Positions 5,030 through 53,211 of a DNA stretch of 64,000 nucleotides are shown here, piece after piece (within the stretch, counting starts at the first letter, position 1; every line of letters starts with the position of its first letter). The stretch is taken from positions 38,440,001-38,504,000 of the forward strand of contig OZ231126.1 of the NCBI GenBank assembly GCA_965153355.1, given 5' to 3'. A program made the translations under genes and the position numbers. This DNA comes from Flaccisagitta enflata (Eukaryota). The notes below the pieces were generated by a model. That model was not told the origin of the DNA. It saw only the letters and a program-made list of their open reading frames with translations, and did no database searches.

Positions 5030-6790
<1,761 letters not shown>

Positions 6791-11206: not shown

Positions 11207-11718
11207 GGTTGGTGCCTGGGCGTCACTTTATTTGTCAGTCAGACTCAATGTCTGTTTTCCTGTCAGTTTGTCTAACTTGTATCGATTACTTGGATGACAG
11301 AAGTAGGCACCAACCATTTTGAGATCATCTGTCCGTCTATCTCTTTGGTCGTCCGATCATCCGACCGTTCACCCACTCATTCAAAGTTACGATTTGCCGT
11401 GGGCATTGTCTTTGCCTATTTCTCCTTGTTTTCCTTTTCCTCTCAGTCTTACTCATTCTTTCTCATTAATTAAGCTGCGATTTTTTACGTTTTCTGTGGC
11501 ATTTGAAATCTTCGATGATCCGTTGTGATCCGGTCTTCCAAAGTTGTTGTTATCCGGCTCTTATAGTTGTGATCCGGTAATTATTTTCCACTACCAGATG
11601 TCGATCGCTGTGAGAATCTCCACATTCCCCACCATCTCCAGGTCAAGAAGCGCTCGATCGGACGCATTCGACTCCGCGGATCCGGAGAATAGGAGGGGCT
11701 CTCTCGCCATCGAAAATC

Positions 11719-11870
11719 CAAGATGGCGTCCGCTCGACTGCAGAGTGGAGGAAATCGAGGAAGAAGGAGAGAGATCTTCGATCGACGGAGGAAGGGGAGG
11801 AACGCGCGCGCGCGCCGGAAGCGCTGACTTCCGGTTGAGAATTGATGAACTATATCTTCTCAACCGCTTA
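11719..11870 (+). promoter_or_regulatory. Candidate LTR promoter elements (YY1-like CAAGATGGCG, paired ETS-like CCGGAAG/ACTTCCGG, inverted repeat CGGTTGAGAA..TTCTCAACCG)
   Basis: Motif matches in the CpG-rich half of the LTR; the same motifs are retained in the diverged solo LTR at 30910-31697. Confidence 0.4.
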
Positions 11871-12129
11871 GAGGAGGAAAGACTTCGACCCCTCTATCGA
11901 ATTCCCACGACGTGACGAGTCTGTTTATTATTGTTTCATTGCTGCCAAATAATTTCAAATCTCGTGATGTTTTGACTCATTTTGCTATTTCCAGGTTAAG
12001 TAAAAGTAGCTTCCTGACTTTCTTTCTGACATTCGATTACACGATCTCAGTTAAAGACTCGATTTTTGATGCTTTTTCCCCGACTTCCCTGCCCTGCGCC
12101 TAGATTGGAAACCGTTAGACAACATCCGT

Positions 12130-12229
12130 GTAAGTCCTTGACCTTTTATCATTTTGGCGCCATATAGAAGTATCCTTCATTGATGTACAGAGCTTGTCTT
12201 AACTTTTTCCTTTTTTCTCTGTCCGTCAG
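12130..12229 (+). other. Putative 100-nt intron inside the LTR
   Basis: GTAAGT donor at 12130-12135, and a polypyrimidine tract plus CAG ending at 12229. Both are conserved in the 3' LTR and the solo LTR. Confidence 0.55.
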
Positions 12230-12393
12230 GATTCCACGAATAGACTGATTTCGTGGACAACTTGACCGCTCATCTCAACAATTCGTCCTAAGCGGGTGTG
12301 CGTTCCAAATCTTTAGCGCAGCTACGCAGTGGAGTCAGTTCTCGCGATTACGCATCAGGAGCTTGCTAAGAAACTAGACGCTAAACGCTCTCA

Positions 12394-12405
12394 ATTCGTG
12401 GAATC
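12394..12405 (+). promoter_or_regulatory. Non-tRNA primer-binding site, complementary to LTR nt 12230-12241
   Basis: ATTCGTGGAATC immediately follows the LTR-terminal CA and is the exact reverse complement of GATTCCACGAAT at 12230-12241. Confidence 0.7.
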
Positions 12406-12437
12406 AAAAACCATCAACGATCCACGCAACGTCAACG

Positions 12438-15400
12438 ATGTCGACCGCCAACAACAACGCCAACGCCGACGCGATGTCAATGCCGCCACCTTCGCTGCCC
12501 AATCAACGCAGAAAAGCCTTTCGTCCAGCCGACTGTGTGTCTGTCGTTTCCGACTCATCTGTCTACGCGGGCGCAATGGACCCCGTGGCTACGACGCTTC
12601 ACGGATTACGATTGGCGCTACGCAACACGCGCAACGCCTACATGTCGGCGTTGAAACAAGCCGATACCCTCGACGACGACGATATATTGGACTTTTACCA
12701 AGATATGGACTGCCTTCGAAAGGAGGTGTGGTTAGCGGCGTGGCGACTTGTCAACCAGACAAAGACTTACTCACATGCAGAGTCGACCAACAATCCCGAC
12801 AAAGCGGCGTCACTGTTATCGACTGCCGAAAGCTCATTGACGGAAGTACGAAACTGTGGGACCAATCATGCTTCCACGATAAAAACACTTTTGCGTCGCA
12901 TCTATTCCTGCCGACCTACCACGACATCCACGACGATTCACCAGAGACTGGAGCAAAACGCGCTCTCGAGATGACGATGGGGTCGTCGACGCATTTCGTC
13001 CAGTCCCTTTCACGACGACGCAAATCGACGCCGAACACAACCGGCGACGATGGAGACGCGGGAGAGGACGACTTGCCCGTCGGTACGGAAGCGGCGAATC
13101 TCAATGCAGCGGAACAACGCCACAACGCGCCGCCCCATACGCCAGGCGCGATACAAGACGCCGAGGAGATACGTATAAACTTTGAACCTCCGACGCCGGC
13201 GACGCCGGCGAGGTCGCGCTTCCTGTCGGCTAGAGACGATGGAGACGATGACGCCGACGACGCGATGGAAACGTCATGGCCGAACAACGACGCCGACCTC
13301 CCTCCAGGCGCCGTTGGCGGCGCCCCTCCCACACAAGATCTTCTCAACATGCTACAGCAGTCGATCGTCGACGGCGACAAAAACGCTCAAGGCGACGCGA
13401 TGGTGAACGTCGTCCAACGTCTTGTCAACGACGTCAACCAAGTCCGACGCTCGGTGGCGAGAGAAGCACGCGCAAACACGCGATTCCGTCTCAGCTCGCG
13501 ATCTGTATCTCAACAACGCGAAGAAAATGCCCGGCAGTTGACGGCAAACATCGCATTAGACGCAGCCGTTACTGCCCGGACAGACGCGGTCACTGCCGGA
13601 ATTGACGAGAGGAAAAAAGGGGAGGAGGAGGAGAGGAGGAAGAAAGAGAAGGAGGAGGAGGAGGAGAGACAACGCATCCACGCTGAAGAAGTGAGAAGGA
13701 AGGCAGAGGAGAGAGAAAGGAGCAGGAGGAGAAAAGGAGGACGAACTTGAAAAACAAGATCGCCCAGGAGAAAAGAGAGAAAGAGGAGAGAGAAGAAAAG
13801 AAAAGGAAGGAAGCAGAGAGGAAAGCAGAGGAGGAGAGAAGGAAGGCGGTGGCAAAAAGAGACGCGGAAGAAAGAAAGAGGATGGAGGAGAAGAAAAGAC
13901 GCGAAGAGAAGAAAAAGGAGGAAGAGAAGAAAAAGAAAGAGGAGGAGGAGAGGAAGAGGAGAGAGGCGCAAAAGAAAAGCCAGCAGAGACAACCACCTTC
14001 CAAGACGCCACCCCCAGCCGCACGTGAACATCCTCTCCACGAGCAACTGCGCACGAGACAAGATGCAGCGGAGCAAGAAAAGTATGCGATGGATCACGCG
14101 GACGCAATGGCAAGGGTCCAACAATTGATCAGCGACCTCAACCTGGAGGACAGCGTCGTTTTGCAGACACGTGTTCCACCGCGCAAATCGACGCCGCCAT
14201 CACCAAGCTCACCCGTCATCGTCCGCCAGATCGCGGGTGATCTTCCAGCTCCGCAAGCGGCCCGAAATGCACGCGGGAGTCAGCGCCCTCTGGTCGACGA
14301 CGTCTTCGATGACGAGGGGTTCGAACGCGTCGACAGACGGAAGTCGAGGAAGTCGCCACCCCCAACGCCGTCGCCTCCTATGTATCAAAGACGTCAAACC
14401 GGAAGTGACTCCGCGCGAAATGGCCTCGCACATTCGCAGTCCTTCGCCGAGAGGATGAACGCCGCCTCTTTCATCGACAACCCGATCGCCTACGACGCCC
14501 GCGTCAGAGCAAAGGACGTGGGATTGAGAGAAATGCGCGCAGCACGCCCAAGAGAAGCGTATGGATACCTCGAGCCGATCGACTACATCATCGCCAAGTC
14601 TAAATTCGAAAATGCCGCCTCCAACATCGAGCTAGACGAAATCGACAAAGTGACTGAATTGGCCAACGTCTTCGCGAATCCAGCGAAGGAAATTATCGAC
14701 GGTCAACAACTGATCATCAAGGCGCACAATATGCGCCGTGTCTACAGCACCTTGTGGAGACGCCTGGACGAGATGTTCAACACGAGCGCCAACCCATTCC
14801 AATCGGCCGTCGACAGCATCTGCAGGAAAGGAAAGGTCCCAGAAAACGATATGAGAGCCCATCAATCATTGATTGGCACGTTGTACAAACTGGAAAACGT
14901 CGCAGAATTGCTGAATGTACCCGGAGAGTGTGATCGTGACGTCCACATTCGCCGCATCATCAACGCGAGGGTGCCACACATCTCGACGGACTATTGGAAA
15001 GCAAGCGCGCGTGAACAAGCTCGCCATGGCACGGCTTACGGCTTCCAAGAACTCATCGAGGAAGTGAAACATTGGGTATCGTACAACAACCTCAAAGAAC
15101 CAACACGCATGGCGCCGAAACCGACGAAGGTTGCAGCGACTGCAGTTGGTCCGGCGACGTTTAAGGAACAGCTCGTCAACTCACCTCCGAAACAGCAACC
15201 CAACGACATCTGCAATATTTGTGGAGGTCGTCACAATTCTCATTCGTGCAATGTTTTGGAAGCCATCCCATCAGCAGAGGATCGAGTGAAGAAGTTGGCG
15301 GAGAAACGTCTATGTTTTCATTGTTTCTGCCCAAACCATTCGGCGCGCGACTGCAAAGACAAGCCAACATGCTCATCTTGCAACAAGAGACACGCAACTT

Positions 15401-15579: not shown

Positions 15580-18500
15580 CTCGCTGCCACCTCCGCGATG
15601 AGGACGGTGGTCGCGGAGGATGATGTCACGCGACCGATTGTTCCTGTAAAGATCACCAACGCATCGACGGGCCGTTCCACCGTAGTGTTGGGGATGATCG
15701 ACAGCGGTGCGGATCGTGACGTTTTATCGTTTCAAATCGTTAAAAAATTAGACTTACCAACTGAAAAGATGCTGATGCGCGTGCATACGGTCAATTGTGA
15801 GGTGGTGGAGGAGAAAGTTTTGGCGTCCTTCATCCTTTCATCGATTGACGAGGAATACAACGTCCACATCAGCAACGCACTTACGGGAGAATTATTGACG
15901 GGTGAAGCGGATATTGCTCCATGCCAACGCGACTTCACAAATCAATCTCATCTTCGCGATATTCCATTTCCAAAAGCAAATGGTCCTGTCCAATTGATCA
16001 TCGGCGCCGCCCATTACGACGCGACGATGCCCGTGGAGGCAAGAAGAGGTCCATCAGGATCTTTGACAGCCTTCAGATGCGGTTTTGGATGGACTGTAGC
16101 AGGGAAGAGTGGACGAAGATCAGATGATACCGCTGTCATTAACGCAATCCACGTGGATAACGCCGCATTGAGCAAATCTCTCGACCGCATGTTCTATCAC
16201 GACTTCGCCATGTGTCGGAGGAAGAAATGGGCCAGTCTGAAGAGAATCGTCGCGCGGTGAAACGAGTGATGGAGACGATATACTTCGACGAGAAACTCCA
16301 AAAATACGTCGTGGGACTTCCATGGCGCTATGACAAGGAGAAGATCATCGAGATTATCAAATCCGTTAACGCACGCGCGATGACGATTAAGAGGACAAAA
16401 AGTCTCCGATACAAACTCTCAAATAATCATGACCTCCGCGATCGCGTCTTCAAAGAAATGGACAAATTTGAGGATACGGGCGTGGCGATTGAGATTGATC
16501 CGACGAATGACGACGCAAGCATCTCATCGCCACGCTGGTACTTGCCTATCCATGTAGTGGAGGAAAGAAATAAAACGCGGATTTGTCACGATGGACGCGC
16601 GGAGACTGGCGGCATTTGCCTCAATGAACTACTGATTGGAGGTCCGAATATCATGAACGTCTTGACTGAAGTTCTTATGAAATTTCGCCTTTATAAAATC
16701 GGTCTGATGACTGATATAAAGGCGTTCTTTCATAATGTCCGCGTCCATCCTGAGGACGCGGACACGTTCAGATATATGTGGTTCACTGACAAAAGCATGA
16801 GAGAGGCAGTCGTGATGCTCTTCTTGGCGCACATTTTTGGATCTGTGTCATCGAGTCTCGTCACCAGCTATGTTTTACGCCATCACGCAGAGAAGATCAA
16901 GCCCGACTTCCCGGAAAACGTCTACGAAATGTTGAGACATGCCTTCTACGTCGATGATGGCTCTGGTGGTGCGGATTCAGTCGACGAAGCACTGCAGCTG
17001 AAGCAGGATCTCATCGCCGCCATGAAAAGCGGCGGATTTACGTTAACTAAATGGAAATCGAACGCGGTGGAGGTGATGGACGACGATCCGAATGTCGCAG
17101 TCGACTTGAGCGCCAAACTCGAGGAGCCGACGAAGGTCTTGGGAGTCCAATGGTTGCCGTCGACGGACTGCTTCATCTTCAGATGCGATCCAGAAGCATG
17201 CAAGAGGGTGGCAACGACTCCTCTGAATTGGTCTCCATGCAAGCCGACAACTATGATCCCTTAGGCTTCACTGCCCCCCGCGCCCTTGAAGGGAGGAGGT
17301 GTCTTCAGTTGACGAGAGCTTCCGAGAAGGGATGGGATTCGACGATGGAGGAGGCGTTAATCAAACGCTTCGCCAAATGGTACTCTGCGACTCCATTGCT
17401 GATCCAGATTGAAATTCCGCGCCACATTGAATGGGGCATTGTGAAGGCCGTTCGACGTGAAGTTCACATCTTCTGCGACGCCGCCATCCCTGGTTTTGGG
17501 GTAGTGGGCTAGTGGTTGGTGGAAGATGAGGATGGAACAATCCGCGTTACCATTTTGTGCGCCAAGGCTCACGTCGTCCCTCTTGATGCGTCAAAAGCGT
17601 CGCACCATAATTCAGTGCCGAGGTTAGAAATGACAGCGGCAGAGAAAGCGGTGAAACTCAAACTTTTCATCAAGAGGACCATTCCAAAGGTGACTGAGGA
17701 CATGGTGACGCTCTGGTCAGATTCAGAGGCGGTGCTGAAGATGATTTTCGACCATAAGTCTAAACGCCCAAGCTTCTTCGCAAACCGACTTTCAAAAATC
17801 CACAGCGGCTCAAGTGATTCCCAATGGAGGTGGGTTGATTCGGAGAATAACTCGCGGACTATTGTTCGCGGGGTATTGATGCCGGCTGACTATGAAAAAT
17901 GGGACATCTTCCATTTCGGTCCGAAGTTTCTCTACCTTCCCAAATCTGAGTGGCCGGTGATGAACATCGCGACGGCGCCGGAAGCGTCAATCAACGCCGT
18001 CGCGACGGAAACGGTGGAGGAGAAGGAAGGAGAGAAGGAAAAGGAGATGTTCGCTTATGCAGTCGCCGCCCGTCGCCAGGAGTGGGTGGCGAAATTGCGT
18101 TTGATCGCCGTGGTTGTGAAGTGCACGCAGCGATGGAGACAGAAGGTGAAGGCAAAAACTAGAACAGCGACAACGACGCTGCCAAATCCATACTCTGTAT
18201 CTATGGCTGAATTGTACGACGCACAACGCCGCTTGATCAACGCGATCCAGTTCAAACATTTCCATGGAGAAATAACCAAGTTGAAGGCGGTGGGAAAAAC
18301 GACGCCGCTGATCAACGACGCCGGCGCCAAAGTGATCTGCAAAACCTTACGCCATCACAATCCGTTGTCGACGAGAAAGGAACGATGCGTGTCGGGAGCA
18401 GACTCGTGAATGCGGATATCGGCCATGATGAAAAATACCCGATGATTCTCCCGTCGAAAGATCCAAACGTCGCTTCTCTGATTCGCCATGTCCATCATCA

Positions 18501-19593
18501 GGATCTTCATGCAGGCCCAAAACACGTCTTGTGCCAACTGCGACGCTTTGTGTGGATTCTTCGTGGTCTCCAGGCGGTGAAGACAGTCATCCACCATTGT
18601 GTTACGTGCCAAAGGAACTTTAAAGATCCTATGAAGCAGCAGATGGCGCCTCTTCCTCAACGTCGGCTTATTCCAACGGCCCCCTTCGAGGAGGTGGGAC
18701 TCGACTGCATGGGTCACTTCCTGGTGAAACTAAATGGAAGAGCGGATCACAAAGTCTGGGCAGTGGTGTTTACATGCATGGTTTCAAGGGCGGTGCATGT
18801 GGAGGTGTTGTTTAAAATGGACACAGAGGCAATGATCAACGCCATCATTAGATTCGCGGCGAGACGGCAAACGGTGCGTCGCTTCATATCAGACTGTGGT
18901 ACCAACCTAGTTGGGGCGAATCGCGTCATGAAGGAGGAGATGCAGTCGTGGAACGCGTCGTCGACGGTGGCTCTGCAGCAGCATGGACTCCAATGGGACT
19001 TCATTCCTCCGGGGACTCCTCATTACGGCGGCGTATGGGAAAGGGTCGTATCCCTTTTCAAAAAACATTTGGCGTCCATTACTTCCGGTCACGTGCTCCA
19101 TTATGACGTCTTCCAAACGGCGGTGATTGAGGTGGAAGGAATTCTCAACCGTCGACCTCTCACGCCTTTGAGCGACGATCCTAGCGATACATCAGCGCTG
19201 AGGCCGGTCAACATCTTGCATCCGTCGACGTTCTCACACTCGTCGGCAGCGATTCTTCCTCCAGAGACCGGAAACGACGCCGTGGGAACGAGATGCCGAT
19301 GGAGAAACGCACAGGCCCGCGTTGACGCCTTCTGGAAGGTATGGCGCGCTGAATACCTTCAGTTGCTGCACGCAAGGAGCAAATGGACAAAGTCGGAAGT
19401 TAACATCAAAAAAGATGCATTGGTCATCATCGTTGACGAGACGCTTCATCGGCATCAGTGGTCTTTGGGACGCGTCGTCGAAGTGGAAGGATCTGGTGGT
19501 CATGTCCGGAAAGCACAGATCCGACGCCCCGACGGCAAGATTGTCCTCAAAGATCGGTCGAAGATCGTCCGATTGGAGTTGGATTCAGATTAA
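15580..19593 (+). pseudogene. pol: BEL/Pao pol (protease, RT, RNase H, integrase), disrupted by frameshifts and one stop
   Basis: Protease MIDSGAD; RT DIKAFF, IFGSVSS and FYVDD; YDPLG; RNase H HIFCDA, VPRLE and WSDS; integrase HHCC finger plus GLDCMG, ISDCGTN and WERV. Frame breaks near 16210, 17220, 17850 and 18365, and a TAG at 17510-17512. Confidence 0.92.
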
Positions 19594-20135
19594 AAACGGA
19601 TAAGTGTGAAGAGAGAGAGAGAAAGTAGACCAGAGAGAAGCACAAGTGTTTCTATTTGTAAAGACTATGCAGAAAATGAGGATTTTTTTCTCATGATTAT
19701 TTTTTGGTCTTGTTTACTTTTTCTCAGTCGGTCTGTCTGATATGTCTTTGTGTGTAATGACAGGAGAGAGAGAGGTACATGGTGCCCCAGTCAGTTGAGA
19801 GTGTCCGCATGATTGACTGACAATCTAAATTTTGCCATGCCATTTCAATCTTGTATTGACCATATAAAGGCATTTGTTCGTCATTTTCTTTTCCGTTTTA
19901 TCCATATCATTGACTGTTGAGTATGGAGGTCATTTGAGGCGCTGATCGAAGAGTTTTATTTCTTTGTCTGCGTATACCATTTAATCTTCCTCAATGTTAA
20001 TGGATATGTCTTCCTCTTTCCGTTATGTTACATATCGAAATCTGAATTTTCTCCAAAAACAGGCGTTTACACTATCTTACGCTAAAAGCTTCCCCTTGTC
20101 GGTATCGTCGCATAACTGTTGCAGAAAGATCCATC

Positions 20136-22481
20136 ATGTCGCAGCAGAATAACCAAGGCACGCCGGACGAGATCCGCGAAGCGAGGAGGCAGCGAATGGC
20201 GCAAGCCCAGGCCGATTTGGTGAGGAGTCATGAGGAGGAGACGAGGAGGATGGAGGAGGAGCGGGCGAGAGTGGAAGAGGAGAAGAAGAAAGTGGAAGAA
20301 GAGAAGAAAGACCCGGAGAAGAAGAGGAGGAGACAGGAGCAGGAGGCCAGGGCAGCGTCCCTCAGAGAACAACGCAGGCTTCGCGGGTTGCACCAGTCCG
20401 TCGCTGGAGGAGCTGATGACGTCATCGACGGGGTCAGCCATCTCTTCAACGACTCGTCTTCCGGCGCGTGGACCGTTACGGACCCTCTTCCTGCTCGGGC
20501 CCTCAACGCGTTCGATGCCAACGCCTTTGCCGACAAGCGCGCCGCCGGTGAAGCGCGTCGTCAAGCCGACGATGCGCTCCGGGCGGCAAGAAAGGCGAAA
20601 CGACAACAAGCTGCCAACGAAAGCTTCGATACGGCAGTCTTGGGAGTGGAGGCGCTCATGGGGGAGTCGACGTCGACCTCCACCACGGACGCCCCCCCGC
20701 CGCCACGCGGAGCAGAGGAAGTGGAGCGACAGGATGTAAATGACCCTGACAACTTGGACTTTGACGATGACGACGACGACGACGACGACGATGACGATTA
20801 CGAGACTCAGGATGACAGTGAGGGCGATAAGATGGACACTAACGAACATGACGGAAGGGGAGAGGGACTTCCTCCCGGGGAGGTTGCTCGACCCGACTCT
20901 ACAGGCCCCCAAGGGGTACTTACTGCTCCTTCCCTTGCTCCCCCAATTCTGCCGCCGCCGCCGCAGACGTCGCAGGCGGTCGTGGAGTCGCCGACGTTAC
21001 AAGTAACGCCGGCCGCAGACTCGACCGCGCCGGCGCCGTTTCAAGCATCACCTGACGCGACGCTGGTGATCCCGCCGTACATCAGTGATCTGTCCTCCAT
21101 CTCGCAGGAACAAGCTGTCGAATTGGTGAAGATCTACAACGCCCAAGTCGACGCCCTCATCGAGCGGAAGCACACTGCGATATACCACGACACGCAGCGT
21201 CGCCTACGCGCGGAGAGAGATGCTCTTCATCCACAAGCCGAGCGAAGAGCATATGTTCCGACACAAAGAGTTAGAGACGAATTAGTTGAAGAGGACGGTG
21301 AGATTGCGACGGTTGAAACACGCGAGACGCTCCAATTGTGCAAGATCATCAACATCAGATCTATTGGAGCAACGGCGGACATGGGAAATGGGACTTTGAG
21401 TGACATTTCCAATGGAAAAGCCTCAAATCAGAGGAAAAGACGACGTGAAGGAGCTGCTCGTCGGATCGCAGAGGCTATTCGTTCGACCGGAAGTGGCAGC
21501 GATCAGCGTCAAACGCCCGCGACGCAGGATCCTCCACAACATCATCCAAGAGACGATCGACGAGCCAATGCTGGCGCCAACAATCTGCAAATCGAAGTGA
21601 GAGAGAAGAGACGTCGGGTGAGCAGGGGTGGACCGCCGGATGCATCCGCATCGTTATCATCGACGGTGATGGATGGTCCCGCGAGATTACCACATGATCC
21701 CGCTCCCCGGCCTCCTCCTCCTCAACGCCAGCGGTCACGTGACATTTCACCAATCCGTGTCCCAACTCAAACGACGACGACAACGAACAATCAAGGGGGT
21801 GTGCTCGCAGGGGCAGCCGCAAATCTGCCCCCACCTCCTCCTCCTCCCGTCAACGACGACCAACAGCGACGAGAGGAGCAAAACGCCAACAAAAAGAAGA
21901 AGAATCGTCGTCCAAAAAGGAAGCCTAGAGATGCGTCGACGTCCAACAGGTCGTCAACGTCGACGGCATCCGCTTCTTCTCCTTCACATCGCCCTCCCCG
22001 ATCGCCGGAGGACCTTCTGACCGAGGCGATGTTGGCCGTCGCCATCAAGTTGCCAAATCATCCTCGGTCAAAGGATATTCAAAAGGTTGTAGACATTCTT
22101 CCGGCGGCCTTCTATCCCAACTCATCTCCGATGGATCGCGCGATCTACGCTGCCGATCACGCCGTGGATAGAGCCAGATCGGCGAGGAAGCTCATCGAAC
22201 AATACAACTTTAGGATGAAGGTTGTCGGTGAGCACGACGCAAAGGTCGCTCAGATGGCCCAGCTGCTGTCCGACGCGAAGAAGGAAGCCGACCGCGTCCG
22301 CGCTGAGTTTTCTCAGTCCGACGGACAAATGCCGTCGACTTCCGGCACTCAACGCCACTCCGCGCCGTCGAGCGACCACGCGCCACCTTCCGGCAGAAAC
22401 CCCCCTCCACGCCACAGTAGGAAAGACGACGCGCCATCCTATCGTGGAGGAAAGGGCGGCAGGGGTAAAGGCCGGAAGTAG
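20136..22481 (+). CDS. Retrotransposon accessory ORF3, 781 aa, function unknown (not env-like)
   Basis: Intact ATG-to-TAG ORF between integrase and the 3' LTR with the same codon style as gag. It has coiled coils, a poly-Asp tract, Pro-rich regions, basic NLS-like runs and an RGG-like tail. Acceptor-like TTTTCTCCAAAAACAG ends at 20062. Confidence 0.85.
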   Translation: MSQQNNQGTPDEIREARRQRMAQAQADLVRSHEEETRRMEEERARVEEEKKKVEEEKKDPEKKRRRQEQEARAASLREQRRLRGLHQSVAGGADDVIDGVSHLFNDSSSGAWTVTDPLPARALNAFDANAFADKRAAGEARRQADDALRAARKAKRQQAANESFDTAVLGVEALMGESTSTSTTDAPPPPRGAEEVERQDVNDPDNLDFDDDDDDDDDDDDYETQDDSEGDKMDTNEHDGRGEGLPPGEVARPDSTGPQGVLTAPSLAPPILPPPPQTSQAVVESPTLQVTPAADSTAPAPFQASPDATLVIPPYISDLSSISQEQAVELVKIYNAQVDALIERKHTAIYHDTQRRLRAERDALHPQAERRAYVPTQRVRDELVEEDGEIATVETRETLQLCKIINIRSIGATADMGNGTLSDISNGKASNQRKRRREGAARRIAEAIRSTGSGSDQRQTPATQDPPQHHPRDDRRANAGANNLQIEVREKRRRVSRGGPPDASASLSSTVMDGPARLPHDPAPRPPPPQRQRSRDISPIRVPTQTTTTTNNQGGVLAGAAANLPPPPPPPVNDDQQRREEQNANKKKKNRRPKRKPRDASTSNRSSTSTASASSPSHRPPRSPEDLLTEAMLAVAIKLPNHPRSKDIQKVVDILPAAFYPNSSPMDRAIYAADHAVDRARSARKLIEQYNFRMKVVGEHDAKVAQMAQLLSDAKKEADRVRAEFSQSDGQMPSTSGTQRHSAPSSDHAPPSGRNPPPRHSRKDDAPSYRGGKGGRGKGRK

Positions 22482-23307
22482 AGGGTCTCGTCGCCATGAT
22501 CCCGGCCATCGTCTTCCCACTTCAATCGCGCGTATCATACCGACGTTTACGTCGTCGCGGAAGACTAGCGGTTGATCATCCAATGGCGACTCGAGATGCT
22601 TCCGGTGACGGACAGGCCGGCCGCCCTCGCTTCTCTAGAGGGCGGTCGGGGGAGGGGGTCCCACCGGGACCCCCCTGCGACTCTCCCCGTAAGTGTCGAG
22701 GGGTAGGGGGGTCTTGAATTGCTCATGAACCAATTGTACCAAATTAGAATATTAAGCGTATGATTTGTGGAATGAGAATCAGTTCTAACTCTCCTGATCC
22801 GTTTCTCCATACCCATTCCGGGTGTGGGGGAACCCCCCCCCCGCTTACATTTAAGAGACGTGCGTGCTGGAGTGATGGACAATCCTAACTGGGCGTCGGT
22901 ACGTAGTATAGTATAGTTTATACACTAGTATAGACCACTTAGCATATAGGCTAATTATTTATTTCAGTCCATCATTCCCGGGGATCTAGTATCGTTACCT
23001 TTTTTTCTTGTTTAGCATGAAGACTGGAGGCAGAATGGAGCGAGAGGAGCGATTCATGACCAGACCGTAGCGATAGCCCGGACGATCGACGGTGGTAGGT
23101 GTTTCTGCTCCTAGAACCCATTTTCTGAATCGTCTTATCCGCGCGAGATCCACGATATTTATAATGGTGTCTTTGTAATATTTAAAAATTTTTGTTTTTG
23201 AGATGAGCCCCGGATGTTGTCATAGCTTGTAAATTTTTAGAATGAACGGTATTCCCTGACAAGAAACTAGTTAGATACGAGATTTGAAATTTTTTATCAA
23301 ATATTTT

Positions 23308-23317
23308 AAAAGGTGGC
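23308..23317 (+). promoter_or_regulatory. Short polypurine-tract position (AAAAGGTGGC)
   Basis: Purine-rich run directly upstream of the 3' LTR TG; short and imperfect. Confidence 0.5.
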
Positions 23318-24103
23318 TGTGAGAATCTCCACATTCCCCACCATCTCCAGGTCAAGAAGCGCTCGATCGGACGCATTCGACTCCGCGGATCCGGAGAATA
23401 GGAGGGGCTCTCTCGCCATCGAAAATCCAAGATGGCGTCCGCTCGACTGCAGAGTGGAGGAAATCGAGGAAGAAGGAGAGAGATCTTCGATCGACGGAGG
23501 AAGGGGAGGAACGCGCGCGCGCGCCGGAAGCGCTGACTTCCGGTTGAGAATTGATGAACTATATCTTCTCAACCGCTTAGAGGAGGAAAGACTTCGACCC
23601 CTCTATCGAATTCCCACGACGTGACGAGTCTGTTTATTATTGTTTCATTGCTGCCAAATAATTTCAAATCTCGTGATGTTTTGACTCATTTTTGCTATTT
23701 CCAGGTTAAGTAAAAGTAGCTTCCCTGACTTTCTTTCTGACATTCGATTACACGATCTCAGTTAAAGACTCGATTTTTGATGCTTTTTCCCCGACTTCCC
23801 TGCCCTGCGCCTAGATTGGAAACCGTTCGACAACATCCGTGTAAGTCCTTGACCTTTTATCATTTTGGCGCCATATAGAAGTATCCTTCATTGATGTACA
23901 GAGCTTGTCTTAACCTTTTTCCTTTTTCTCTGTCCGTCAGGATTCCACGAATAGACTGATTTCGCGGACAACTTGACCGCTCATCTCAACAATTCGTTCT
24001 AAGCGGGTGTGCGATCCAAATCTTTAGCGCAGCTACGCAGTGGAGTCAGTTTCGCGATAACGCATCAGGAGCTTGCTAAGAAACTAGACGCTAAACGATC
24101 TCA
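23318..24103 (+). repeat. 3' LTR (786 bp)
   Basis: TGTGAGAATC...CGATCTCA, followed by the TSD ATCGC. Confidence 0.95.
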
Positions 24104-24511
24104 ATCGCGTAAATACATTCCGATCAAGATTTTTTGCTTCCGTCATTCGGTAACAAAAAACGGTTTTCCTCCATAGGGCCGTCGATAGGTCCGTCCGTTT
24201 GTCAAGCGTTCAGTTCCATAATTCCAAGTTGATATGCTTACTTCTATACTTTACCTTTCTTAGAAGTTTAAGCGTAACTGCCGCTTGTAGGCGTGGAACA
24301 AGGCCGGATACGCGGCTACCCCAGTCGCGTGCTGGTGAGCAGGGCAAATATTCAGGGTCACTACTCACTAGAGCATTTTGGCAGGAGCAGTAAGGCCTAA
24401 GACCCCCAAAACATAAAAAGTAAAAAGAGGACCGACCGACCAACCAACCGACGGACGGACGGACGGATAAAGCGGGTTGCAGGGCCTGCACGCGGAAAAT
24501 ACAATTACTTT

Positions 24512-30604: not shown

Positions 30605-33600
30605 TAGTCCAGGCTTTTTAAAAAAAGCATCGGCGATTCTGCAGCAAAGTCTGAAAATTTGCATACAGGGTCAGTTTTTGATGCTGAACAAGACTAGGAT
30701 CGGTCCACGTCAAAATTTTTTATGGACCTACCTAAAAAATGCATTTTTTCTCAAAAAAAAATTTCAAAATTGCGCCAACGCCAAACCGTTTGACGGATCA
30801 TCATAAAAATTTAGTTGAAGCAAAATATAGGTTTTTTTTACTTCCATTTCAAATTTTATCAAAATTGGTTCACTAGAAGCGGAGATATAGCTGTTTAAAG
30901 TCTGGGCATTGAAAGCGTTTACGGTCTGATTTCCTATCAAGCTCCTGATGCGTAATTGCGAGAACTGACTCCACTGCCGAGCTGCGCTATTGAGTTGGAA
31001 CGTACACCCGCTTATAACGAATTGTTGAGATGAGCGGTCAAGTTGTCCGCGAAATCAGTCTATTCGTGGAATCCTGATGGACAGAGGAAAAGAAAAAGGT
31101 TAAGAACACACTGTACATCAATGATGGATACTACTGTAAATGCGCCAAAAAGAGTAAAAAGGTCAAGGACTTACATGGATGTTGTCGAACGGTTTCCAAT
31201 CTAGGCGCAGGACAGGGAAGTCGAGGGAAAAACATCAAAATCGAGTCTCTAATTGATATTGTGAAGTCAAATGTCAGTAAGAGAGTCGGGGAAGCCACTT
31301 TACTTAACCTATAAATAAATAACACAATAAATCAAAGCATCACGAGATTTGAAATTATTTGGCAGCAATGGAACAACAATAAACGTAAGCGTCGCGTCGT
31401 GGGAATTCGCCAGAGGGGTCGAAGTTGATTCTCCTCTAAGCGGTTGAGGAGATAAGTCCATCAATCCTCAACCGGAAGTCAGCGCTTCCGGGCGCGCGCG
31501 CGTGCCTCCTCTTCCTCCGTCGAGCGAAGATTCTCTCTCCTTTTCCTCGATTTCCTCCACTCGACTGCCGAATGGACGCCATCTTGGATCTTCGACGGCG
31601 AGATATCCTCTCCACTCCTTCGGGATCCGCGGAGTCGATTGCGTTTGATCGAAGGCTTCTTGACCTGAATATGGTGGGGAATGTGCAGAATGTCACAGGT
31701 ATGTTTTTCAAAAAAATGCTATATTTGATTTTTGGCAAAAAAAATTGAAAAAATCATCTTAAGACCCCCAAACTTTTTTTGGATATTACTTTGACCATTT
31801 GACACCTACTGAAAAAAAACGAATAAAAAAAATATTCAGTTTTGCTCCCATTATGGCTAAAAAAACAAAAAATTGGATATCAAAATCTACACCAAATTTT
31901 CAAAAAAAGCTATTTTTGTATAAATAGCCTAATTTTTGATGCCAGCTCCAGGAATCAGTCCTCTATAGGCATATTTACTTGACTGCAAAGTTTTAGAATG
32001 GTCCAAAACCAAAAAAACACAAAAAAACTGTTCAAAGTCTAAAAATTTGGGGCCCAAAATTTTGCATTTTTGGATACCTTTGGACATTTGGCATTGCTAC
32101 GGCCAAACCCTTAGAGCCAGTTGCACCAAATTTTGCATCCAAGTCGCCAATCACCTGGAGCATCTTCGTGCAAAATTTCAGGCCATATAGCCAAGTTTAA
32201 GTAACATTTTTGGGCTAAAAATACCCAAAAAACGCCCAAAAAATGCGAAAAAATGTTTTTTTAGCCATATAGGCTAAACTATGTGTCCCACTATCATGAA
32301 ATTTTGCATTGATGGACTTGACCTCAACATGTACCTGCATGAAAAATTTCATTGGCCTATGATAAGCGGTTTTCTCAAAATTCAATTTTGAATTTTTTCA
32401 AAATTTTGCATTTTCATTTTTGAAATACATTTTTAATTTTTTCAACAAAGATAGAGTGTATCATGATGCACACTATGAGAATTTATTCTTCATAAGCATA
32501 TTCACTTGAGTGCAAAATTTCACAATAGTCCTATAACTCAAAAAACCTAAAATCACTGCTCAAAATCATGATATTAGGGGTACAAAATTTTGCATTTTTG
32601 GACATCTTAGGACATTTTGGCTTGCTACAGTCTAACACCTTGGACTAGTGGCCCCAAATTTTGCATACAGTTTGTCAAGCACCAGGGCCATCTTCATGCA
32701 AAATTTCAGCCTAAAAATCAAATGATTGCAAAAAAATGTTTTTTTAGCCATGCTACAGCCAAACGCCTTGGACTGGTAGCCCCAAATTTTGCATACAGCT
32801 TGTCTAGCACCAGGGCCATCCTCATGCAAAATTTCCGCCTAAAAATCAAATGGTAAATAAGTTTTTTGGCTTAAAAATCCCCAAAAAATGCCCAAAAAAT
32901 GCAAAAAAATGTTTTTTTATTATGCTACAGCCAAACGCCTAAGACTAGTGGCCCCAAATTTGGCATATAGCTTGTCAAGCGCCAGGGCCATTTTCATGCA
33001 AAATTTCAGCCTAAAAATCAAACGATAAGTAGGTTTTTTGGCTTATAAGACCCAAAAAATGCCCAAAAAATGCAAAAAAATGTTTCTTTAGCCATGCTAC
33101 AGCCAAACGCCTTGGACTAGTGGCCCCAAATTTTGCTTACAGCTTTTGAAGCACCAGAGGCATCTTCATGCAAAATTTCAGCCTAGAAATCAAATGACAA
33201 GTAGGTTTTTTGGCTTAAAAATCCCCCAAAAATGCCAAAAAATTGTTTTTTTAGCCATGCTACCGCCAAATGCCTTGGACTAGTGGCCCCAAATTTTGCA
33301 TACAGCTTGTCAAGCACAAGGGCCATCTTCATGCAAAATTTCAGCCTAAAAATCAAATGATAAGTAGGTTTTTTGGCTTAAAAATCCCCCAAAAATGCAA
33401 AAAAATTGCAAAAAAATGTTTTTTTAGCCATGCTACAGCCAAACGCCTTGGACTAGTGGCCCCAAGTTTTGCATATAGCTTGTTAAGCACCAGGGCCATC
33501 CTCATGCCAAATTTCAGCCTGAAAATCAGATGATAAGTATGTTTCAATGCTTAAAAATGCCAAAAAAATGCCAAAAAAAAGCAAAAAAATGTTGTTTTAG

Positions 33601-36600
33601 CCAAAAAGGCCAAATTATGTGTCTCACTATCATAAGATTTTGCATATGTGGACTTGACCTCAACATGTACCTGCAGGAAAAAATTCATTGACCTGTGATA
33701 CACTGTTTTTTCAAAATTCAATCTCAAATTTTTTTCAAAATTTTGCATTTTTGGTCAAACGATTTATTGTTCTTTTATCAAGATAGAGTGTATTTTGATA
33801 CAGGCTTTCAGGATTTTTTCCTCATAACATATCTACTAAGGTGCAAAATTTTACAATGGTTCAATGGCTCAGAAACTCAAATTTGCTGCTCAAAGTCATG
33901 AAATTATGGGTCTGAAATATTGCATTTTTGGATATTTTAGGACATTTGGTCTTGCTATGACCAAGCATTTTGGGCCAGTGGCCCCAAATTTTGCACACAA
34001 GTTGCAAAGCATTAGGTCCATCGGTCTATCTGTCACACTTTACTTTTTTTGGGTTTTTGCGGTTTTTGGTCTCACTGGTCCTGCTTAAATGATCTGGTGG
34101 CCTCAATTACAGGCCTTGTCCACCTGCACGCGACTGGGGTAGCCGTGTAGCCATGTATCTGGCCTTGTTTTCTCTTACATAGCTTATATATTGTGTATAC
34201 CCACTGAGGCTGAGATCTAGTGCCTTGAGGCTGGGATTTGAGCATTGCAGCTGGATTTTGAGCTGTAAGGCTGTTATTGAGGCCTTGAGGCTGGGAATTG
34301 AGTTAAAAGAATCACTACATACCATATTCTTTTTTCTCTTTCATAGCTCACAGATTTTAGTATCATATAGAATCAAGTCTTCTTCGTGTCTACGTATCTT
34401 GGAGATGTTGACAAAGTCTTGGATTGATTAGTCTTCTGTTTTATTCACACATGAAGCGAAGTGAAGAAATATCAGCTCAAAAAGCAACAATTACAAAGAA
34501 GATGCATCAAAAGTATCTCCTTACTGTTTCTGAAGGAAACACTTATTTCTTTGCTGTAGTAATTGAAACTGATTTTGATATAAGACGGTATTTAAGAAAT
34601 CCAAAAGTCGCAGAAGCAATACAGCAATCTGTAAGAATCTTTGCAGAGATGATTAAGATTTCAAGAGCATTACAGAGAGAAAAACACAATGTTTTCTGAT
34701 AGAAACAGAGACATAGACATAGACTTGATCTTGTTTATGGCTTATGCAGAAAAAAAACACCTGCTTGCACTATAAAAGCGTAGGTATCATTAACAAGTAC
34801 CATGCTATCATACTACGTAATTAGTCTAATGCAACACTGCATCATCTTATTGGGCCCATAAATGATGCAGTGTTACCAAAGACTATGGTTCTTTACCTTC
34901 AAGGAAGTAAGTACATCTACATTTGAATAAAGCATCAAGAGTCAAGTTTCAGCTTGATCATATTTGAAAACGTAATAGCAACTATTCAGAAAAGAAACAA
35001 CCAAGTTGTAGTGATTTTTTATCAAATGATATCCTTCTAAAGTTGAAATTTTTCCAGGTGATGTTGCTTAGAATTTTTAAAAAAGTTTCAACTTGCCCAA
35101 AGTGCTTGGCCATAGCAAGACCAAATGTCCTAAAACATCCAAAAATGTAATATTTTGGACCCCTTATTTCATGACTTCGAGCAGCAAATTTGAGTTTCTG
35201 AGCCATTGAACCATTGTAAAATTTTGAACCTTAGTAAATATGCTTATGGGGAAAAAATTCTGAAAGCCTCTATCAAAATACACTCTATCTTGATAAAAGA
35301 ACAAAAAATCTTTTGACAAAAAATGCAAAATTTTGGAAAGATATTGAGATTGAATTTTGAAAAAAACAGTGTATCACAGGTCAATGAAATTTTTCCTGCT
35401 GGTACATGTTGAGGTCAAGTCCACATATGCAAAATCTTATGATAGCGAGACACATAGTTTGGCCTATTTGGCTTAAATAACATTTTTTTGCAATTTTTTG
35501 GCATTTTTTTGGCCTTTTTAGGCCTTGAAACATACTTATCATTTGATTTTCAGGCTGAAATTTGGCATAATGATGGTCCTGGTGCTTGACAAGCTGTATG
35601 CAAAATTTGGGGCCACTAGTCCAAGGCATTTGGCTGTTGCATGGCTAAAAAAAACATTTTTTTTTTTGCATTTTTTGGGCATTTTTTGGGGATTTTTAAG
35701 CCAAAAAACCTACTTATCATTTGATTTTTGGGCTGAAATTTTGCATGAAGACGGCCCTGGTGCTTGACAAGCTGTATGCAAAACTTGGGGCCACTAGTCC
35801 AAGGCGTTTGGCTGTAGCATGGCTAAAAAAAACATTTTTTTTCATTTTTTGGGGATTTTTAAGCCAGAAAACCTGCTTATCATTTGATTTTTATGCTGAA
35901 ATTTTGCATGAAGATGGCCCTGGTGCTTGACAAGCTGTATGCAAAATTTGGGGCCACTAGTCCAAGGCGTTTGGCTGAAGCATGGCTAAAAAAACTTTTT
36001 TTTGTGTTTTTTGCATTTTTGGGGGATTTTTAAGCCAGAAAACCTGCTTATCATTTGATTTTTAGGCTGAAATTTTGCATGAAGATGGCCCTGGTGCCTG
36101 ATAAGCTGTATGCAAAATTTGGGGCCACTAGTCCAAGGCGTTTGGCTGAAGCATGGCTAAAAAAAACATTTTTTTGCATTTTTGGGCATTTTTTGGGGAT
36201 TTTTAAACCAAAAATCTTACCATTTGATTTCTAGGCTGAAATTTTGCATAAAGATGGTCCTGGTGCTTGACAAGCTGGAAGCAAAATTTGGGGCCACTAG
36301 TCCAAGGCGTTTGGCTGTAGCATGGCTAAAAAACTATTTTTTTGCAATTTTTTTGCATTTTTGGGGGATTTTTAAGCCAAAAAACCTACTAATCATTTGA
36401 TTTTTAGGCTGAAATTTTGCATGAAGATGGCCCTGGTGCTTGACAAACTGTATGCAAAATTTGGGGCCACTAGTCCAAGGAGTTTGACTGTAGCAAGCCA
36501 AAATATCCTAAGATGTCCAAAAATGCAAAATTTTGTACCCCAAATATCCTGATTTTGAGCAGTGATTTTAGGTTTTTTGAGTTATTGGACCATTGTAAAA

Positions 36601-37718
36601 TTTTGCACTCAAGTGAATATGCTTATGAAGAATAAATTCTCATAGTGTGCATCATGATACACTCTATCTTTGTTGAAAAAATTAGAAATGTATTTCAAAA
36701 ATGAAAATGCAAAATTTTGAAAAAATTCAAAGTTGAATTTTGAGAAAACCGTTTATCATGGGCCAATGAAATTTTTTATGCAGGTACATGTTGAGGTCAA
36801 GTCCATCAATGCAAAATTTCATGATAGTGGGACACATAGTTTAGCCTATATGGCTAAAAAAACATTTTTTTGCATTTTTTGGGTGTTTTTTGGGTATTTT
36901 TAGCCCAAAAATGTTACTTAAACTTGGCTATATGGCTTGAAATTTTGCACGAAGATGCTCCAGGTGATTGGCGACTTGGATGCAAAATTTGGTGCAACTG
37001 GCTCTAAGGGTTTGGCTGTAGCAATGCCAAATGTCCAAAGGTATCCAAAAATGCAAAATTTCGGGCCCCAAATTTTTAGACTTTGAACAGTTTTTTTGTG
37101 TTTTTTTGGTTTTGGACCATTCTAAAACTTTGCAGTCAAGTAAATATGCCTATGGAGGACTGATACCTGGAGCTGGCATCAAAAATTAGGCTATTTTTAC
37201 AAAATTAGCTTTTTATGAAAATTTGGTGTAGATTTTGATATCCAATTTTTTGTTTTTTTAGCCATAACGGGAGCAAAACTGAATATTTTTTTGATCCGTT
37301 TTTTTCAGTAGGTGTCAAATGGTCAAAGTAATATCCAAAAAAAATTTGGTGGACAAAAAATGATTTTTTTAATTTTTTTTGCCAAGAATCAAACATAGCG
37401 TTTTTTTCAAAAACATACCCAGACTTTAAACAGCTATATCTCCGCTTCTAGCAAACCAATTTTGATAAAATTTGGAGTGGAAGTAAAAAAAACATATATT
37501 TTGCTTTTATGATGATCCGGCAAACGGTTTGGCGTTGGGGCAGTTTTGAAATTTTTTTTTGAGAAAAAATGCATTTTTTAGGTAGGTCCATAAAAGATTT
37601 TGACGTGGACCGATCCTAGTCTTGTTCAGCATCAATAACTGACCCTGTATGCAAATTTTCAGGCTTTCCTGCAGATTCGTCGATACTTATATTTTTATTC
37701 CTTTAGCAGCCGGGACTA
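30605..37718. mobile_element. 7.1-kb foldback DNA element with inverted arms of about 2.6 kb
   Basis: The left arm (30605 to about 33975, minus the solo LTR) is the reverse complement of about 35090-37718. Termini are TAGTCCAGGCT and AGCCGGGACTA with TTT on both sides. Each arm holds tandem subrepeats of about 180 bp, and the spacer is about 1.1 kb. Confidence 0.88.
30910..31697 (-). mobile_element. Solo LTR (788 bp) of a diverged subfamily of the same BEL element
   Basis: The reverse complement matches the 11609-12393 LTR end to end (TGTGACATTC...CGCTTTCA). Flanks are GGCAT and GGTAT, and the opposite foldback arm shows the empty site GGTAT. Confidence 0.92.
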
Positions 37719-38852: not shown

Positions 38853-41380
38853 GTCTGTCACACACTCTAGAAATCTCCAATGTTTGTCACTGAACCCAGA
38901 ATTCTCCAATGTCCGTCACACAACCCAGAGTTCTCCAAATGTCTGTCTCACCACCCAGTTTTCTCCAAATGTCCGTCACACCACCCAGATTTCTCCAGAT
39001 GTCTATCTCACCACTCAGTTTTCTCCAATGTCTGTCACATTAGCCAAATTTCTCCTATGTCTGTCACACAACCCAAAATTCTCCAATGTCTGTCACACAA
39101 CCCAAGATTCTCCAATGTCTGTCACAAAACCTGAGATTCTCCAATGTCTGTCACACAACCAAAGATTCTCCATGTCTCCGATATCTGTCACACAACCCAA
39201 GATTCTCCAATGTCTGTCACACAACCTAAAATTCTCCCATGTCTGTCACACAGCCTAAGATTCTCCGATGTCTGTCACACAACCCAAAATTCTCCATTGT
39301 CTGTCATACAACCCCAGATTCTCCGATGTCTGTCACACAACCCAAGATTTTCCGATGTCTGTCTCACAACCCAAAATTCTCCTGTGTCTGTCACACAGCC
39401 CAAGATTCTCCGATGTCTGTCACATAACCCAAAATTCTCTTATGTCTTTCACACAACCCAAAATTTTTGGATGTCTGTCACACAGCCCAAGATTCTCCGA
39501 TGTCTGTCACACAACCCAAAACTCTCCGACGTCTGTCACACAGCCCAAGATTCTCCGATGTCTGTCACACAACCCAAGATTCTTTAATGTCTGTCACACA
39601 ACCCAAAATTCTCCAATGTCTGTCACACAGCTCAAGGTTCTCCGATGTCTGTCACATAACCCAAAATTCTCCGATGTCTGTCACACAACCCAAAATCCTC
39701 TGATGTCTGTCACACAGCCCAAGATTCTCCAATGTCTGTCACGCAACCCAAAATTTTTTTATGTCTGTCATACAGCCTAAGATTCTCTGATGTCTGTCAC
39801 ACAACCCAAAATTCTCGGATGTCAGTCACACAACCCAAAACTCTCCGATGTCTGTCACACAACCCAAAATTCTCAAATGTCTGTCACACAACCCAAGATT
39901 CTCTGATGTCTGTCACATAACCCAAAATTCTCTTACGTCTTTCACACAACCCAAAATTTTTGGATGTCTGTCACACAGCCCAAGATTCTCCGATGTCTGT
40001 CACACAACCCAAAATTCTCCGACGTCTTTCACACAGCCCAAGATTCTCCGATGTCTGTCACACAACCCAAGGTTCTCCGATGTCTGTCACACAACCCAAA
40101 ATTCTCCGATGTCTGTCACACAACCCAAAATTCTCTGATGTCTGTCACACAGCCCAAGATTCTCCAATGTCTGTCACACAACCCAAAATTTTTCGATGTC
40201 TGTCGTACAGCCTAAGATTCTCTGATGTCTGTCACACAACCCAAAATTCTCGGATGTCAGTCACACAACCCAAAACTCTCTGATGTCTGTCACACAACCC
40301 AAAATTCTCCAATGTCTGTCACACAACCCAAGATTCTCTGATGTCTGTCACACAACCCAAGATTCTCCAATGTCTGTCACACAACCCAAAATTCTCCGAT
40401 GTCTGTCACACAGCCCAAGATTCTCCGATGTCTGTCACACAACCCAAAATTTTCCAATGTCTGTCACAACCAAAAATTCTCTAATGTCTGTCACACAGCC
40501 CAAGATTCTCCAATGTCTGTCACACAAACCAAAATTCTCCGATGTCTGTCACACAACCCAAAATTCTTCAATGTCTGTCACAAACCCAAGATTCTCCCAT
40601 ATCTGTCACACAACCCAAGATTCTCCCATGTCTGTCAAACAACCCAAAATTCTCCAATGTCTGTCACACAGCCCAAGATTCTCCAATGTCTGTCACTCAA
40701 CGCAAAATTCTCCAATGTTTGTCACACAACCCAAACTTCTTCAATGTCTGTCACACAGCCCAAGATTCTCCAATGTCTGTCACACAACCCAAAATTCTGC
40801 GTTGTCTGTCACACTACCCCAGATTCTCGAATGTCTGTCACACAACCCAAGATTCTCCGATGTCTGTTACACAACCCAAAATTCTCCAATGTCTGTCACA
40901 CAACCCAAGATTCCCCAATGTTTGTCTCACAACCCAAGATTCTCCAATGTCTGTCACACATCCAAAAATTCTTCGATGTCTGTCACACAACCCAAGATTC
41001 TCGGATGTCTTTCACATGACCGAAAATTATCCAATGTCTGTCATACAACCCAAAATTCTCCAATGTCTGTCACACAGCCTACGATTCTCCGATGTCTGTT
41101 ACACAACCCAAGATTCTCTGATGTCTCTCGCACAACTCAAGTCTCTGATGTCTGTCACACAACCCAAAATTCTCCAATGTCTGTCACACAACCCCAGATT
41201 CTCCGATGTCTGTCACACAACCTAAGATTTTCCAATGTCTGTTACACAACCCAATATTCTCCAATGTCTGTCACACAACCCAAAATTCTCCAAATTTATG
41301 TCACACAACCCAGTTTTCTCCAATGTTTGTCACACAGCCTAGAATTCTCCAATGTATGTCACACCACCCAGTTTCACCCA
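38853..41380 (+). repeat. 29-bp minisatellite, about 85 units
   Basis: Consensus ATGTCTGTCACACAACCCAARATTCTCCR; the 29-aa period of the translations equals three units. Confidence 0.95.
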
Positions 41381-52654: not shown

Positions 52655-53211
52655 ACCGAGAGAGGACAAATAATTTTCTTCCCCCTTACTTCGGCCATAC
52701 CAACTAAATCTGGTTTCACCGCCACCGGCTCTCTCTCTCTCTCATTCTCCATTTCTCTTTTCTTTCTCTCTCTCTCTCGCTTTTCTCTGTTCTTTCTCTC
52801 TCCGGCAATCAAGAAAGAGAAAACACGGAAAAATTACGCTGAGTCTTTTTCCTCTCTGGCCTCTCCTCTGTCATTCCGTCTTTTTTGCGAGCAACGGGAA
52901 GCAAAAAGAGAGATAAAAAAAAACTTTTTTCTTCCAATGAACACGAATAAAAATTCGCCCCTCCTCATTGACTAAGAGATAACAACGAGAAAGATGGAAT
53001 CATCATCATCAACTTCAAAGAGAAAAATCTAAAAATAGACAACAAAAAAGATTCTGTTGAGAAAAAAGAAAGACATAAGAAGAGAAATTCAACACCCGAA
53101 TTGCGAAACTTTCGGTATCGGGAACCAAACACAAAGAAAACAATTCTCTTCTTTTTTTCTGAGGAGAGAACTTAAACAAGAAAAAAAAAAACTTTGGTCC
53201 TAATACCAAAA

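Follow-up and report, generated by a model that had tools for sequence, protein, structure and literature searches.

In Tf1 of S. pombe, a Ty3/gypsy element, the first 11 nt of the RNA anneal to its primer binding site (PBS) and are cleaved in an RNase H-dependent step. Self-priming of this kind has been shown for Tf1 and inferred for Tj1 and other Tf1/sushi elements, with the PBS pairing with the mRNA's 5' end (PMC4600332, in extract). It has also been predicted from sequence for the plant lineages Tcn1 (gypsy) and TAR (copia), in 12% of the plant elements surveyed, with the criterion that Neumann et al. 2019 set for self-primers, namely complementarity to the LTR over at least 10 bp, beginning 0-5 bp past the 5' LTR (PMC6317226, in extract). 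The Tcn1 and TAR cases, as given in that extract, show that self-priming is already polyphyletic. The ICTV profile describes the Belpaoviridae as elements of 4.2-10 kb that are primed by tRNA-Arg or tRNA-Gly at an 18-nt PBS (PMC8742986, in extract), and the words primer, tRNA and priming are absent from the 2011 survey of BEL/Pao (PMC3118150). The preliminary description of the present locus knew of no self-priming BEL/Pao element; full-text literature searches, which did not extend to the supplementary PBS tables of PMC13524379 and PMC6317226, likewise gave self-priming in other groups only.

The element described here lies in a 64-kb window (the whole stretch of DNA that was analyzed, to which all coordinates refer). 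We lean towards the reading that this BEL/Pao element would start minus-strand DNA synthesis with its own RNA, and not with a tRNA, in a Tf1-like manner. Like Tf1 and Tf2 (S. pombe) and Tj1 (S. japonicus), it lacks a tRNA PBS and has, in its 5' LTR, a perfect complement of the bases directly past the LTR; the complementarity spans 12 nt in this element and 11 nt in Tf1. Unlike Tf1 and Tj1, which are Ty3/gypsy elements of the Tf1/sushi type, the element is a member of BEL/Pao and is known from sequence alone. Since BEL/Pao is a different superfamily, an origin independent of that of Tf1 is plausible. The element resembles Tcn1 and TAR in that it is called by the same criterion, as a prediction from sequence (PMC6317226, in extract), and it differs from them in that they are plant elements of other superfamilies.

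Anatomy and class of the element

The element is 12.5 kb long and falls, by Pfam analysis, into the BEL/Pao class. Its parts, and those of a related solo LTR, are as follows.

11604-11608, + strand: left copy of the TSD, ATCGC, the same five bases as at 24104-24108
11609-12393, + strand: 5' LTR, 785 nt, TG...CA, 98.6% identical to 23316-24105 by BLAST against the window; its ends and the TSD were read directly
12438-12974, + strand: start of gag, with the ATG at 12438, from translation
15580-19593, + strand: pol, with protease, RT, Pao-type domain and integrase with DUF5641, from the ORF list and Pfam
20136-22481, + strand: third long ORF, 781 aa from its first ATG, downstream of the integrase and family-restricted
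23308-23317, + strand: purine-rich tract AAAAGGTGGC, adjoining the 3' LTR, from sequence
23318-24103, + strand: 3' LTR, 786 nt, TG...CA, from BLAST and alignment, with the 12-mer discussed below at 23941-23952
24104-24108, + strand: right copy of the TSD, ATCGC, matching 11604-11608
30910-31697, - strand: solo LTR, a diverged relative that is about 86% identical, flanked by ATACC and ATGCC, with an intact 12-mer at 31062-31073

The assignment to BEL/Pao made in the preliminary description was borne out by Pfam. Internal ORFs gave Peptidase_A17 (Pao; in two adjoining ORFs) and RVT_1, while the integrase ORF gave Integrase_H2C2, rve and DUF5641; PF18701 and/or PF17921 were present in all relatives of the integrase. 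The features that define the group are thus present: a Pao-type domain (PF05380), RT, an integrase with a DUF5641 tail, TG...CA LTRs and a short TSD. Members of the Tf1/sushi clade have a Ty3/gypsy-type pol, usually with an integrase chromodomain, and Pfam instead gave Peptidase_A17 and DUF5641. Any likeness to Tf1 would thus be one of mechanism only; the element is not a member of the Tf1/sushi clade. It shares with canonical Belpaoviridae the domain set, the TG...CA LTRs, the 5-bp duplication and the purine tract before the 3' LTR, and departs from them in having no 18-nt tRNA PBS, a length of 12.5 kb compared with 4.2-10 kb, and the additional ORF of 781 aa (PMC8742986, in extract).

This copy is decayed, with gag and pol spread over several frames and an in-frame stop at 17510-17512. 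The perfect 5-bp duplication and the paired LTRs indicate that it is the product of a complete retrotransposition, and as a finished product it carries a PBS that worked at least once. The third ORF has no Pfam family and no Atlas match. Only 15 proteins among 1.84 billion representative proteins were similar to it at E ≤ 0.001, all of them close relatives. The open frame (20046-22481) appears as a family-restricted extra gene in which an envelope-protein signal was looked for and none was found.

The ATG of gag lies only 44 nt past the 5' LTR. Protein relatives of the element occur in ENA, MERC and Logan. The N-terminal part of gag has six metagenome protein relatives with 59-96% identity. 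Five of these align from the N-terminus with the same start methionine, and the sixth (P0085) is a C-terminal piece; because the gag relatives start at this methionine, they carry no information on the PBS. No DNA of related elements was found in metagenome or viral contigs using the integrase protein or the gag alignment, and none in viral contigs using the integrase alignment or a 25-nt LTR pattern. When the gag alignment was compared with prokaryote genome contigs, a single match of 29% identity was obtained in a bacterial MAG (L001), which was taken as spurious. The host is a marine animal; among public runs, many marine metagenomes contain parts of the window, and five RNA runs contain 6-20% of its words.

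Complementarity between the LTR and the bases that follow it

The TG...CA termini and the 5-bp ATCGC duplication fix the ends of the LTR, such that base 12394 is the first after the 5' LTR. Two features are defined from this point.

12230-12241, + strand: candidate self-primer GATTCCACGAAT, the exact reverse complement of 12394-12405, whose last base, 12241, would face 12394 in the duplex
12394-12405, + strand: candidate PBS ATTCGTGGAATC, beginning at the first base past the 5' LTR

The preliminary description had reported an exact 12-nt reverse complementarity that begins directly after the LTR, is unchanged in the two other LTR copies and would place a primer at the LTR terminus. Each of these points held on re-examination. 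Reading of the sequence gave 12 of 12 paired bases between ATTCGTGGAATC and GATTCCACGAAT. With the LTR end secured by the termini and the duplication, pairing starts at the first post-LTR base, and it ends on both sides (G12229 stands opposite A12406, and A12242 opposite A12393). An RNA 3' end at 12241 would first copy 12393, the last base of the LTR; in this respect the element is like Tf1 and Tj1, where cleavage at the duplex end would likewise leave a 3' end able to prime at the terminus of the LTR (PMC4600332, in extract). With 12 of 12 bases at offset 0, the site falls within the operational definition of at least 10 bp at 0-5 bp past the 5' LTR.

The 12-mer occurs only four times in the 64-kb window: on the + strand at 12230 and 23941, and as its reverse complement at 12394 and 31062. 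It is the same in the 3' LTR (23941) and in the diverged solo LTR (31062-31073), and so is invariant across all three LTR copies. It also lies at the head of the longest block without differences between the element family and the solo LTR (12226-12287, 62 nt). As the solo LTR has no PBS, its retained 12-mer is silent on co-variation between primer and PBS.

A PBS of the tRNA type was not found. The leader between the LTR and gag (12394-12437, 44 nt) contains a single TGG, at 12399 (+6), in agreement with the earlier observation that the PBS does not begin with TGG; likewise, a direct search past the 5' LTR for an 18-nt tRNA-Arg or tRNA-Gly PBS gave no TGG-first site. A tRNA PBS at +6 (TGGAATC...) was considered and rejected on tRNA invariants: the RNA that it implies would combine an A at position 61 with U73 and an A/U-rich acceptor arm, and is presumably not a cytosolic tRNA. 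ARAGORN found no tRNA genes in the 64-kb window, and no Rfam family matched the window at the gathering score. Around the LTR, the search for Rfam families gave one match far below threshold, a 12-bit lncRNA match at 11583-11654.

The likelihood of such a match arising by chance was estimated in several ways. When the LTR was put through 20,000 dinucleotide shuffles, an anchored reverse-complement match of at least 12 nt at +1 arose in four of them. Under the looser published criterion of 10 bp or more at offset 0-5, 160 of 20,000 shuffles gave a match. When interior positions of the element were each compared with their own preceding 785 nt, a match of at least 12 nt was found at none of 10,109. 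Scanning the interior (12394 to about 23290) with the real LTR gave three sites of at least 12 nt, at 12394, 19140 and 23277. Across the whole window the rate of such matches was 0.9% of 63,185 positions, a figure that is inflated by the satellites and hairpins of this repeat-rich window. The chance of an anchored 12-nt match is thus about 2e-4 per element. The match was, however, singled out by eye in a very extensive scan with many LTR elements, in which some event of this probability is expected by chance somewhere.

A proposed self-priming model and its alternatives

In the proposed model, bases 12230-12241 of the LTR would fold back on 12394-12405, the 12 nt adjoining the LTR. The RNA would then be cut after 12241, and reverse transcriptase would extend the new 3' end, with 12393 as the first templated base. 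In the simple form of the model the RNA would have its 5' end at or near 12228-12230, giving an R-U5 of approximately 164 nt and a primer that consists of the first 12-14 nt. Annealing in vivo, the cut, the cutting agent and the RNA start are the parts of this model that we infer. According to the established retroviral scheme, the 3' end of the primer serves as template for the new PBS. As this copy completed reverse transcription, a PBS copied in this way means that the primer ended in ...GAUUCCACGAAU, as encoded by the element's own LTR. Plus-strand strong-stop DNA copies the primer up to its 5' end, and for this reason the RNA must begin near 12230 in the simple Tf1-like model; the sharp end of the complementarity at 12230 fits this requirement.

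Predicted RNA folding bears on both the pairing and the position of the RNA start. The duplex between the LTR 12-mer and the PBS was calculated at -16.6 to -17.3 kcal/mol, compared with -12.2 kcal/mol for the next-best LTR site, such that the 12-mer is by far the best partner for the PBS anywhere in the LTR. For an RNA starting at 12228 or 12230, the 12-bp stem has a predicted probability of 0.87-1.0 and forms part of the MFE structure as well as of the centroid structure. For an RNA starting at 12100 the probability is approximately 0.3, and for one starting at 11880 it is 0. The stem is lost from this last RNA because a local hairpin (12232-12239 with 12250-12257) wins, involving the following feature.

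12250-12257, + strand: PBS-like octamer TTCGTGGA, forming a competing local hairpin with 12232-12239

The competing hairpin has a predicted energy of -12.1 kcal/mol in the 5' LTR and of -8.2 kcal/mol in the 3' LTR and the solo LTR, both of which have C at the position of 12254. The fold of the whole 176 nt is not unusually stable (z -1.34; 16 of 200 shuffles were equally stable), and overall fold stability was rejected as evidence. The Tf1-like self-priming put forward in the preliminary description stands in part: it retains the lack of a TGG-first PBS, an exact complementarity beyond chance and agreement with the criterion of Neumann et al., whereas the predicted fold does not contain the pairing if the RNA starts far upstream.

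Other sequence signals around a possible start at 12230 were also considered. Against the model, no TATA-like motif was found in the sequence about 30 nt upstream of 12230, and past 12230 the hexamers resembling poly(A) signals are limited to weak variants: AATAGA, which overlaps the 12-mer at 12239, and AAGAAA at 12368. In its favour, no ATG occurs from 12186 to the gag ATG at 12438. The stretch directly before the 12-mer has the appearance of an intron.

12130-12229, + strand: intron-like stretch in the LTR, with GTAAGT at 12130, CTTAAC at about 12199, a pyrimidine tract and CAG at 12227-12229, from sequence

The CAG boundary noted in the preliminary description is real: a 25-nt run that is 88% pyrimidines leads into the CAG, which ends at 12229. 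This looks like a textbook 3' splice signal, and the 12-mer begins exactly behind it; GTAAGT lies 100 nt upstream and the branch-like CTTAAC approximately 27 nt upstream. On the + strand of the window there are 35 acceptor-like sites, only two of which have a GTAAGT 60-250 nt upstream; these two are the LTR copies of the element. Both ends of the intron-like stretch are conserved, and the part of the LTR most diverged from the solo LTR is 12143-12219, within the 80 nt that precede the conserved block at 12226-12287 and that form the most diverged part of the LTR. Such conservation resembles an exon-intron-exon arrangement. The 5' end of the mRNA serves as the primer in Tf1 and Tj1 (PMC4600332, in extract), whereas the 12-mer of the BEL/Pao element follows an intron-like 3' splice signal. 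Such a signal directly before the 12-mer points to an RNA start further upstream. Alternatively, by the initiator consensus, TCAG at 12226-12229 could be an initiator at which the RNA itself starts.

The foremost alternative to self-priming is that the element is primed by a host RNA, either an internal tRNA fragment or another small RNA that ends in ...GAUUCCACGAAU. The LTR 12-mer would then mimic the host RNA, and the stem would mask or regulate the PBS, as retroviral U5-PBS stems do. We consider this unlikely. The PBS is not TGG-first and the TGG at +6 implies an RNA that, by tRNA invariants, would be a non-canonical tRNA; a perfect 12-nt copy of the 3' end of a host primer inside the LTR would still need explaining; and the Rfam search placed no family in the window and a single sub-threshold match around the site. 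A host primer does accord with the description of BEL/Pao elements as tRNA-primed (PMC8742986, in extract) and with the occurrence of half-tRNA primers in Ty1/copia (PMC6317226, in extract). It would also gain from an RNA start upstream, as the 12-mer would then be internal to the RNA and more like a structural partner of the PBS.

A purely structural role for the stem, which would close the 5' leader for packaging, translation or splicing control while priming takes another route, is in our view rather improbable. Nothing would oblige a structural stem to begin at the first post-LTR base; about 30 other registers are available in the leader, and these 44 nt hold no alternative PBS. Nevertheless, the second PBS-like octamer at 12250-12257 would suit a structural role, Ty1 uses 5'-3' cyclization sequences, and the LTR takes part in other long-range complementarities, among them one between 23277-23295 and 11947-11965 (18 of 19 bases), as follows.

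23277-23295, + strand: stretch just upstream of the polypurine tract, complementary at 18 of 19 bases to LTR 11947-11965 (E 0.005 in a small search)

The intron-like signal also allows a variant of self-priming, to which we give little credence, in which a working 3' splice site (in cis or for a spliced leader) lies before the self-primer. The 5' edge of the primer would then be set by RNA processing and not by the transcription start. Any transcript spliced onto 12230, including host read-through, could then prime at the LTR end after a cut at 12241, and the sequence upstream of 12242 would be regenerated from the 3' LTR. If true, this splice-coupled reading would mean promoter-independent self-priming in a third LTR superfamily.

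Finally, a chance match is very improbable: the scan covered many thousands of LTR elements, two further reverse-complement LTR matches of at least 12 nt occur in the interior (19140 and 23277) and 0.9% of positions match in the repeat-rich window as a whole, but the exact register was reproduced in only 4 of 20,000 shuffles, and the match coincides with a missing tRNA-type PBS and with the most conserved block of the LTR.

The case for self-priming comes from one locus and from its sequence only. If true, it would place self-priming in all three large LTR superfamilies, with Ty3/gypsy shown, Ty1/copia predicted and BEL/Pao added, and would argue that escape from the tRNA primer evolves easily and repeatedly. 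It would likewise correct the textbook view of the Belpaoviridae as tRNA-primed, and would serve as a warning that annotation pipelines that call a PBS by tRNA match alone miss such elements. That the primer coincides with a splice-like signal poses a concrete question for RNA 5'-end mapping.

LTR divergence and other features of the window

The 5' and 3' LTRs differ at 12 alignment columns, none of which is in the first 371 nt. When the solo LTR was used as an outgroup, all eight changes private to the 5' LTR were located at or before 12287, and all four changes private to the 3' LTR at or after 12303. By simple arithmetic, a full separation of this kind has a chance of about 2 in 495. The uneven distribution suggests gene conversion rather than simple ageing, and with gene conversion the identity of the LTRs may misdate the insertion.

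The LTR partner of 23277-23295 is present in both LTRs, at 11947-11965 and at 23656-23674. The first of these falls in a 33-nt block (11937-11969) containing AAATAAT, with no differences in the solo LTR. The pairing could be a 5'-3' cyclization signal or a control element for the poly(A) signal.

The upstream half of the LTR (11715-11860) contains AAGATGGCG, a palindromic CCGGAAG/CTTCCGG pair and TATATC near 11850. The palindromic pair lies within a 25-nt block (11815-11839) that is identical in the solo LTR. We take this half of the LTR to look like a housekeeping-type promoter.

Tandem arrays are found in the window at 39049-41000, 32000-37100 and 5400-6550, with a 29-nt unit present at least 66 times, units of approximately 170 nt, and 8-12-nt microsatellite-like units at many places. 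The window also carries, at 53176-55938, a single open frame of 920 codons that encodes a TGF-beta family protein with both the propeptide and the mature domain (Pfam E-values: 1e-21 and 3e-35). Its named relatives include BMP2/7-like proteins and ADMP, and its best matches are nemertean, brachiopod and mollusc (spiralian) proteins.
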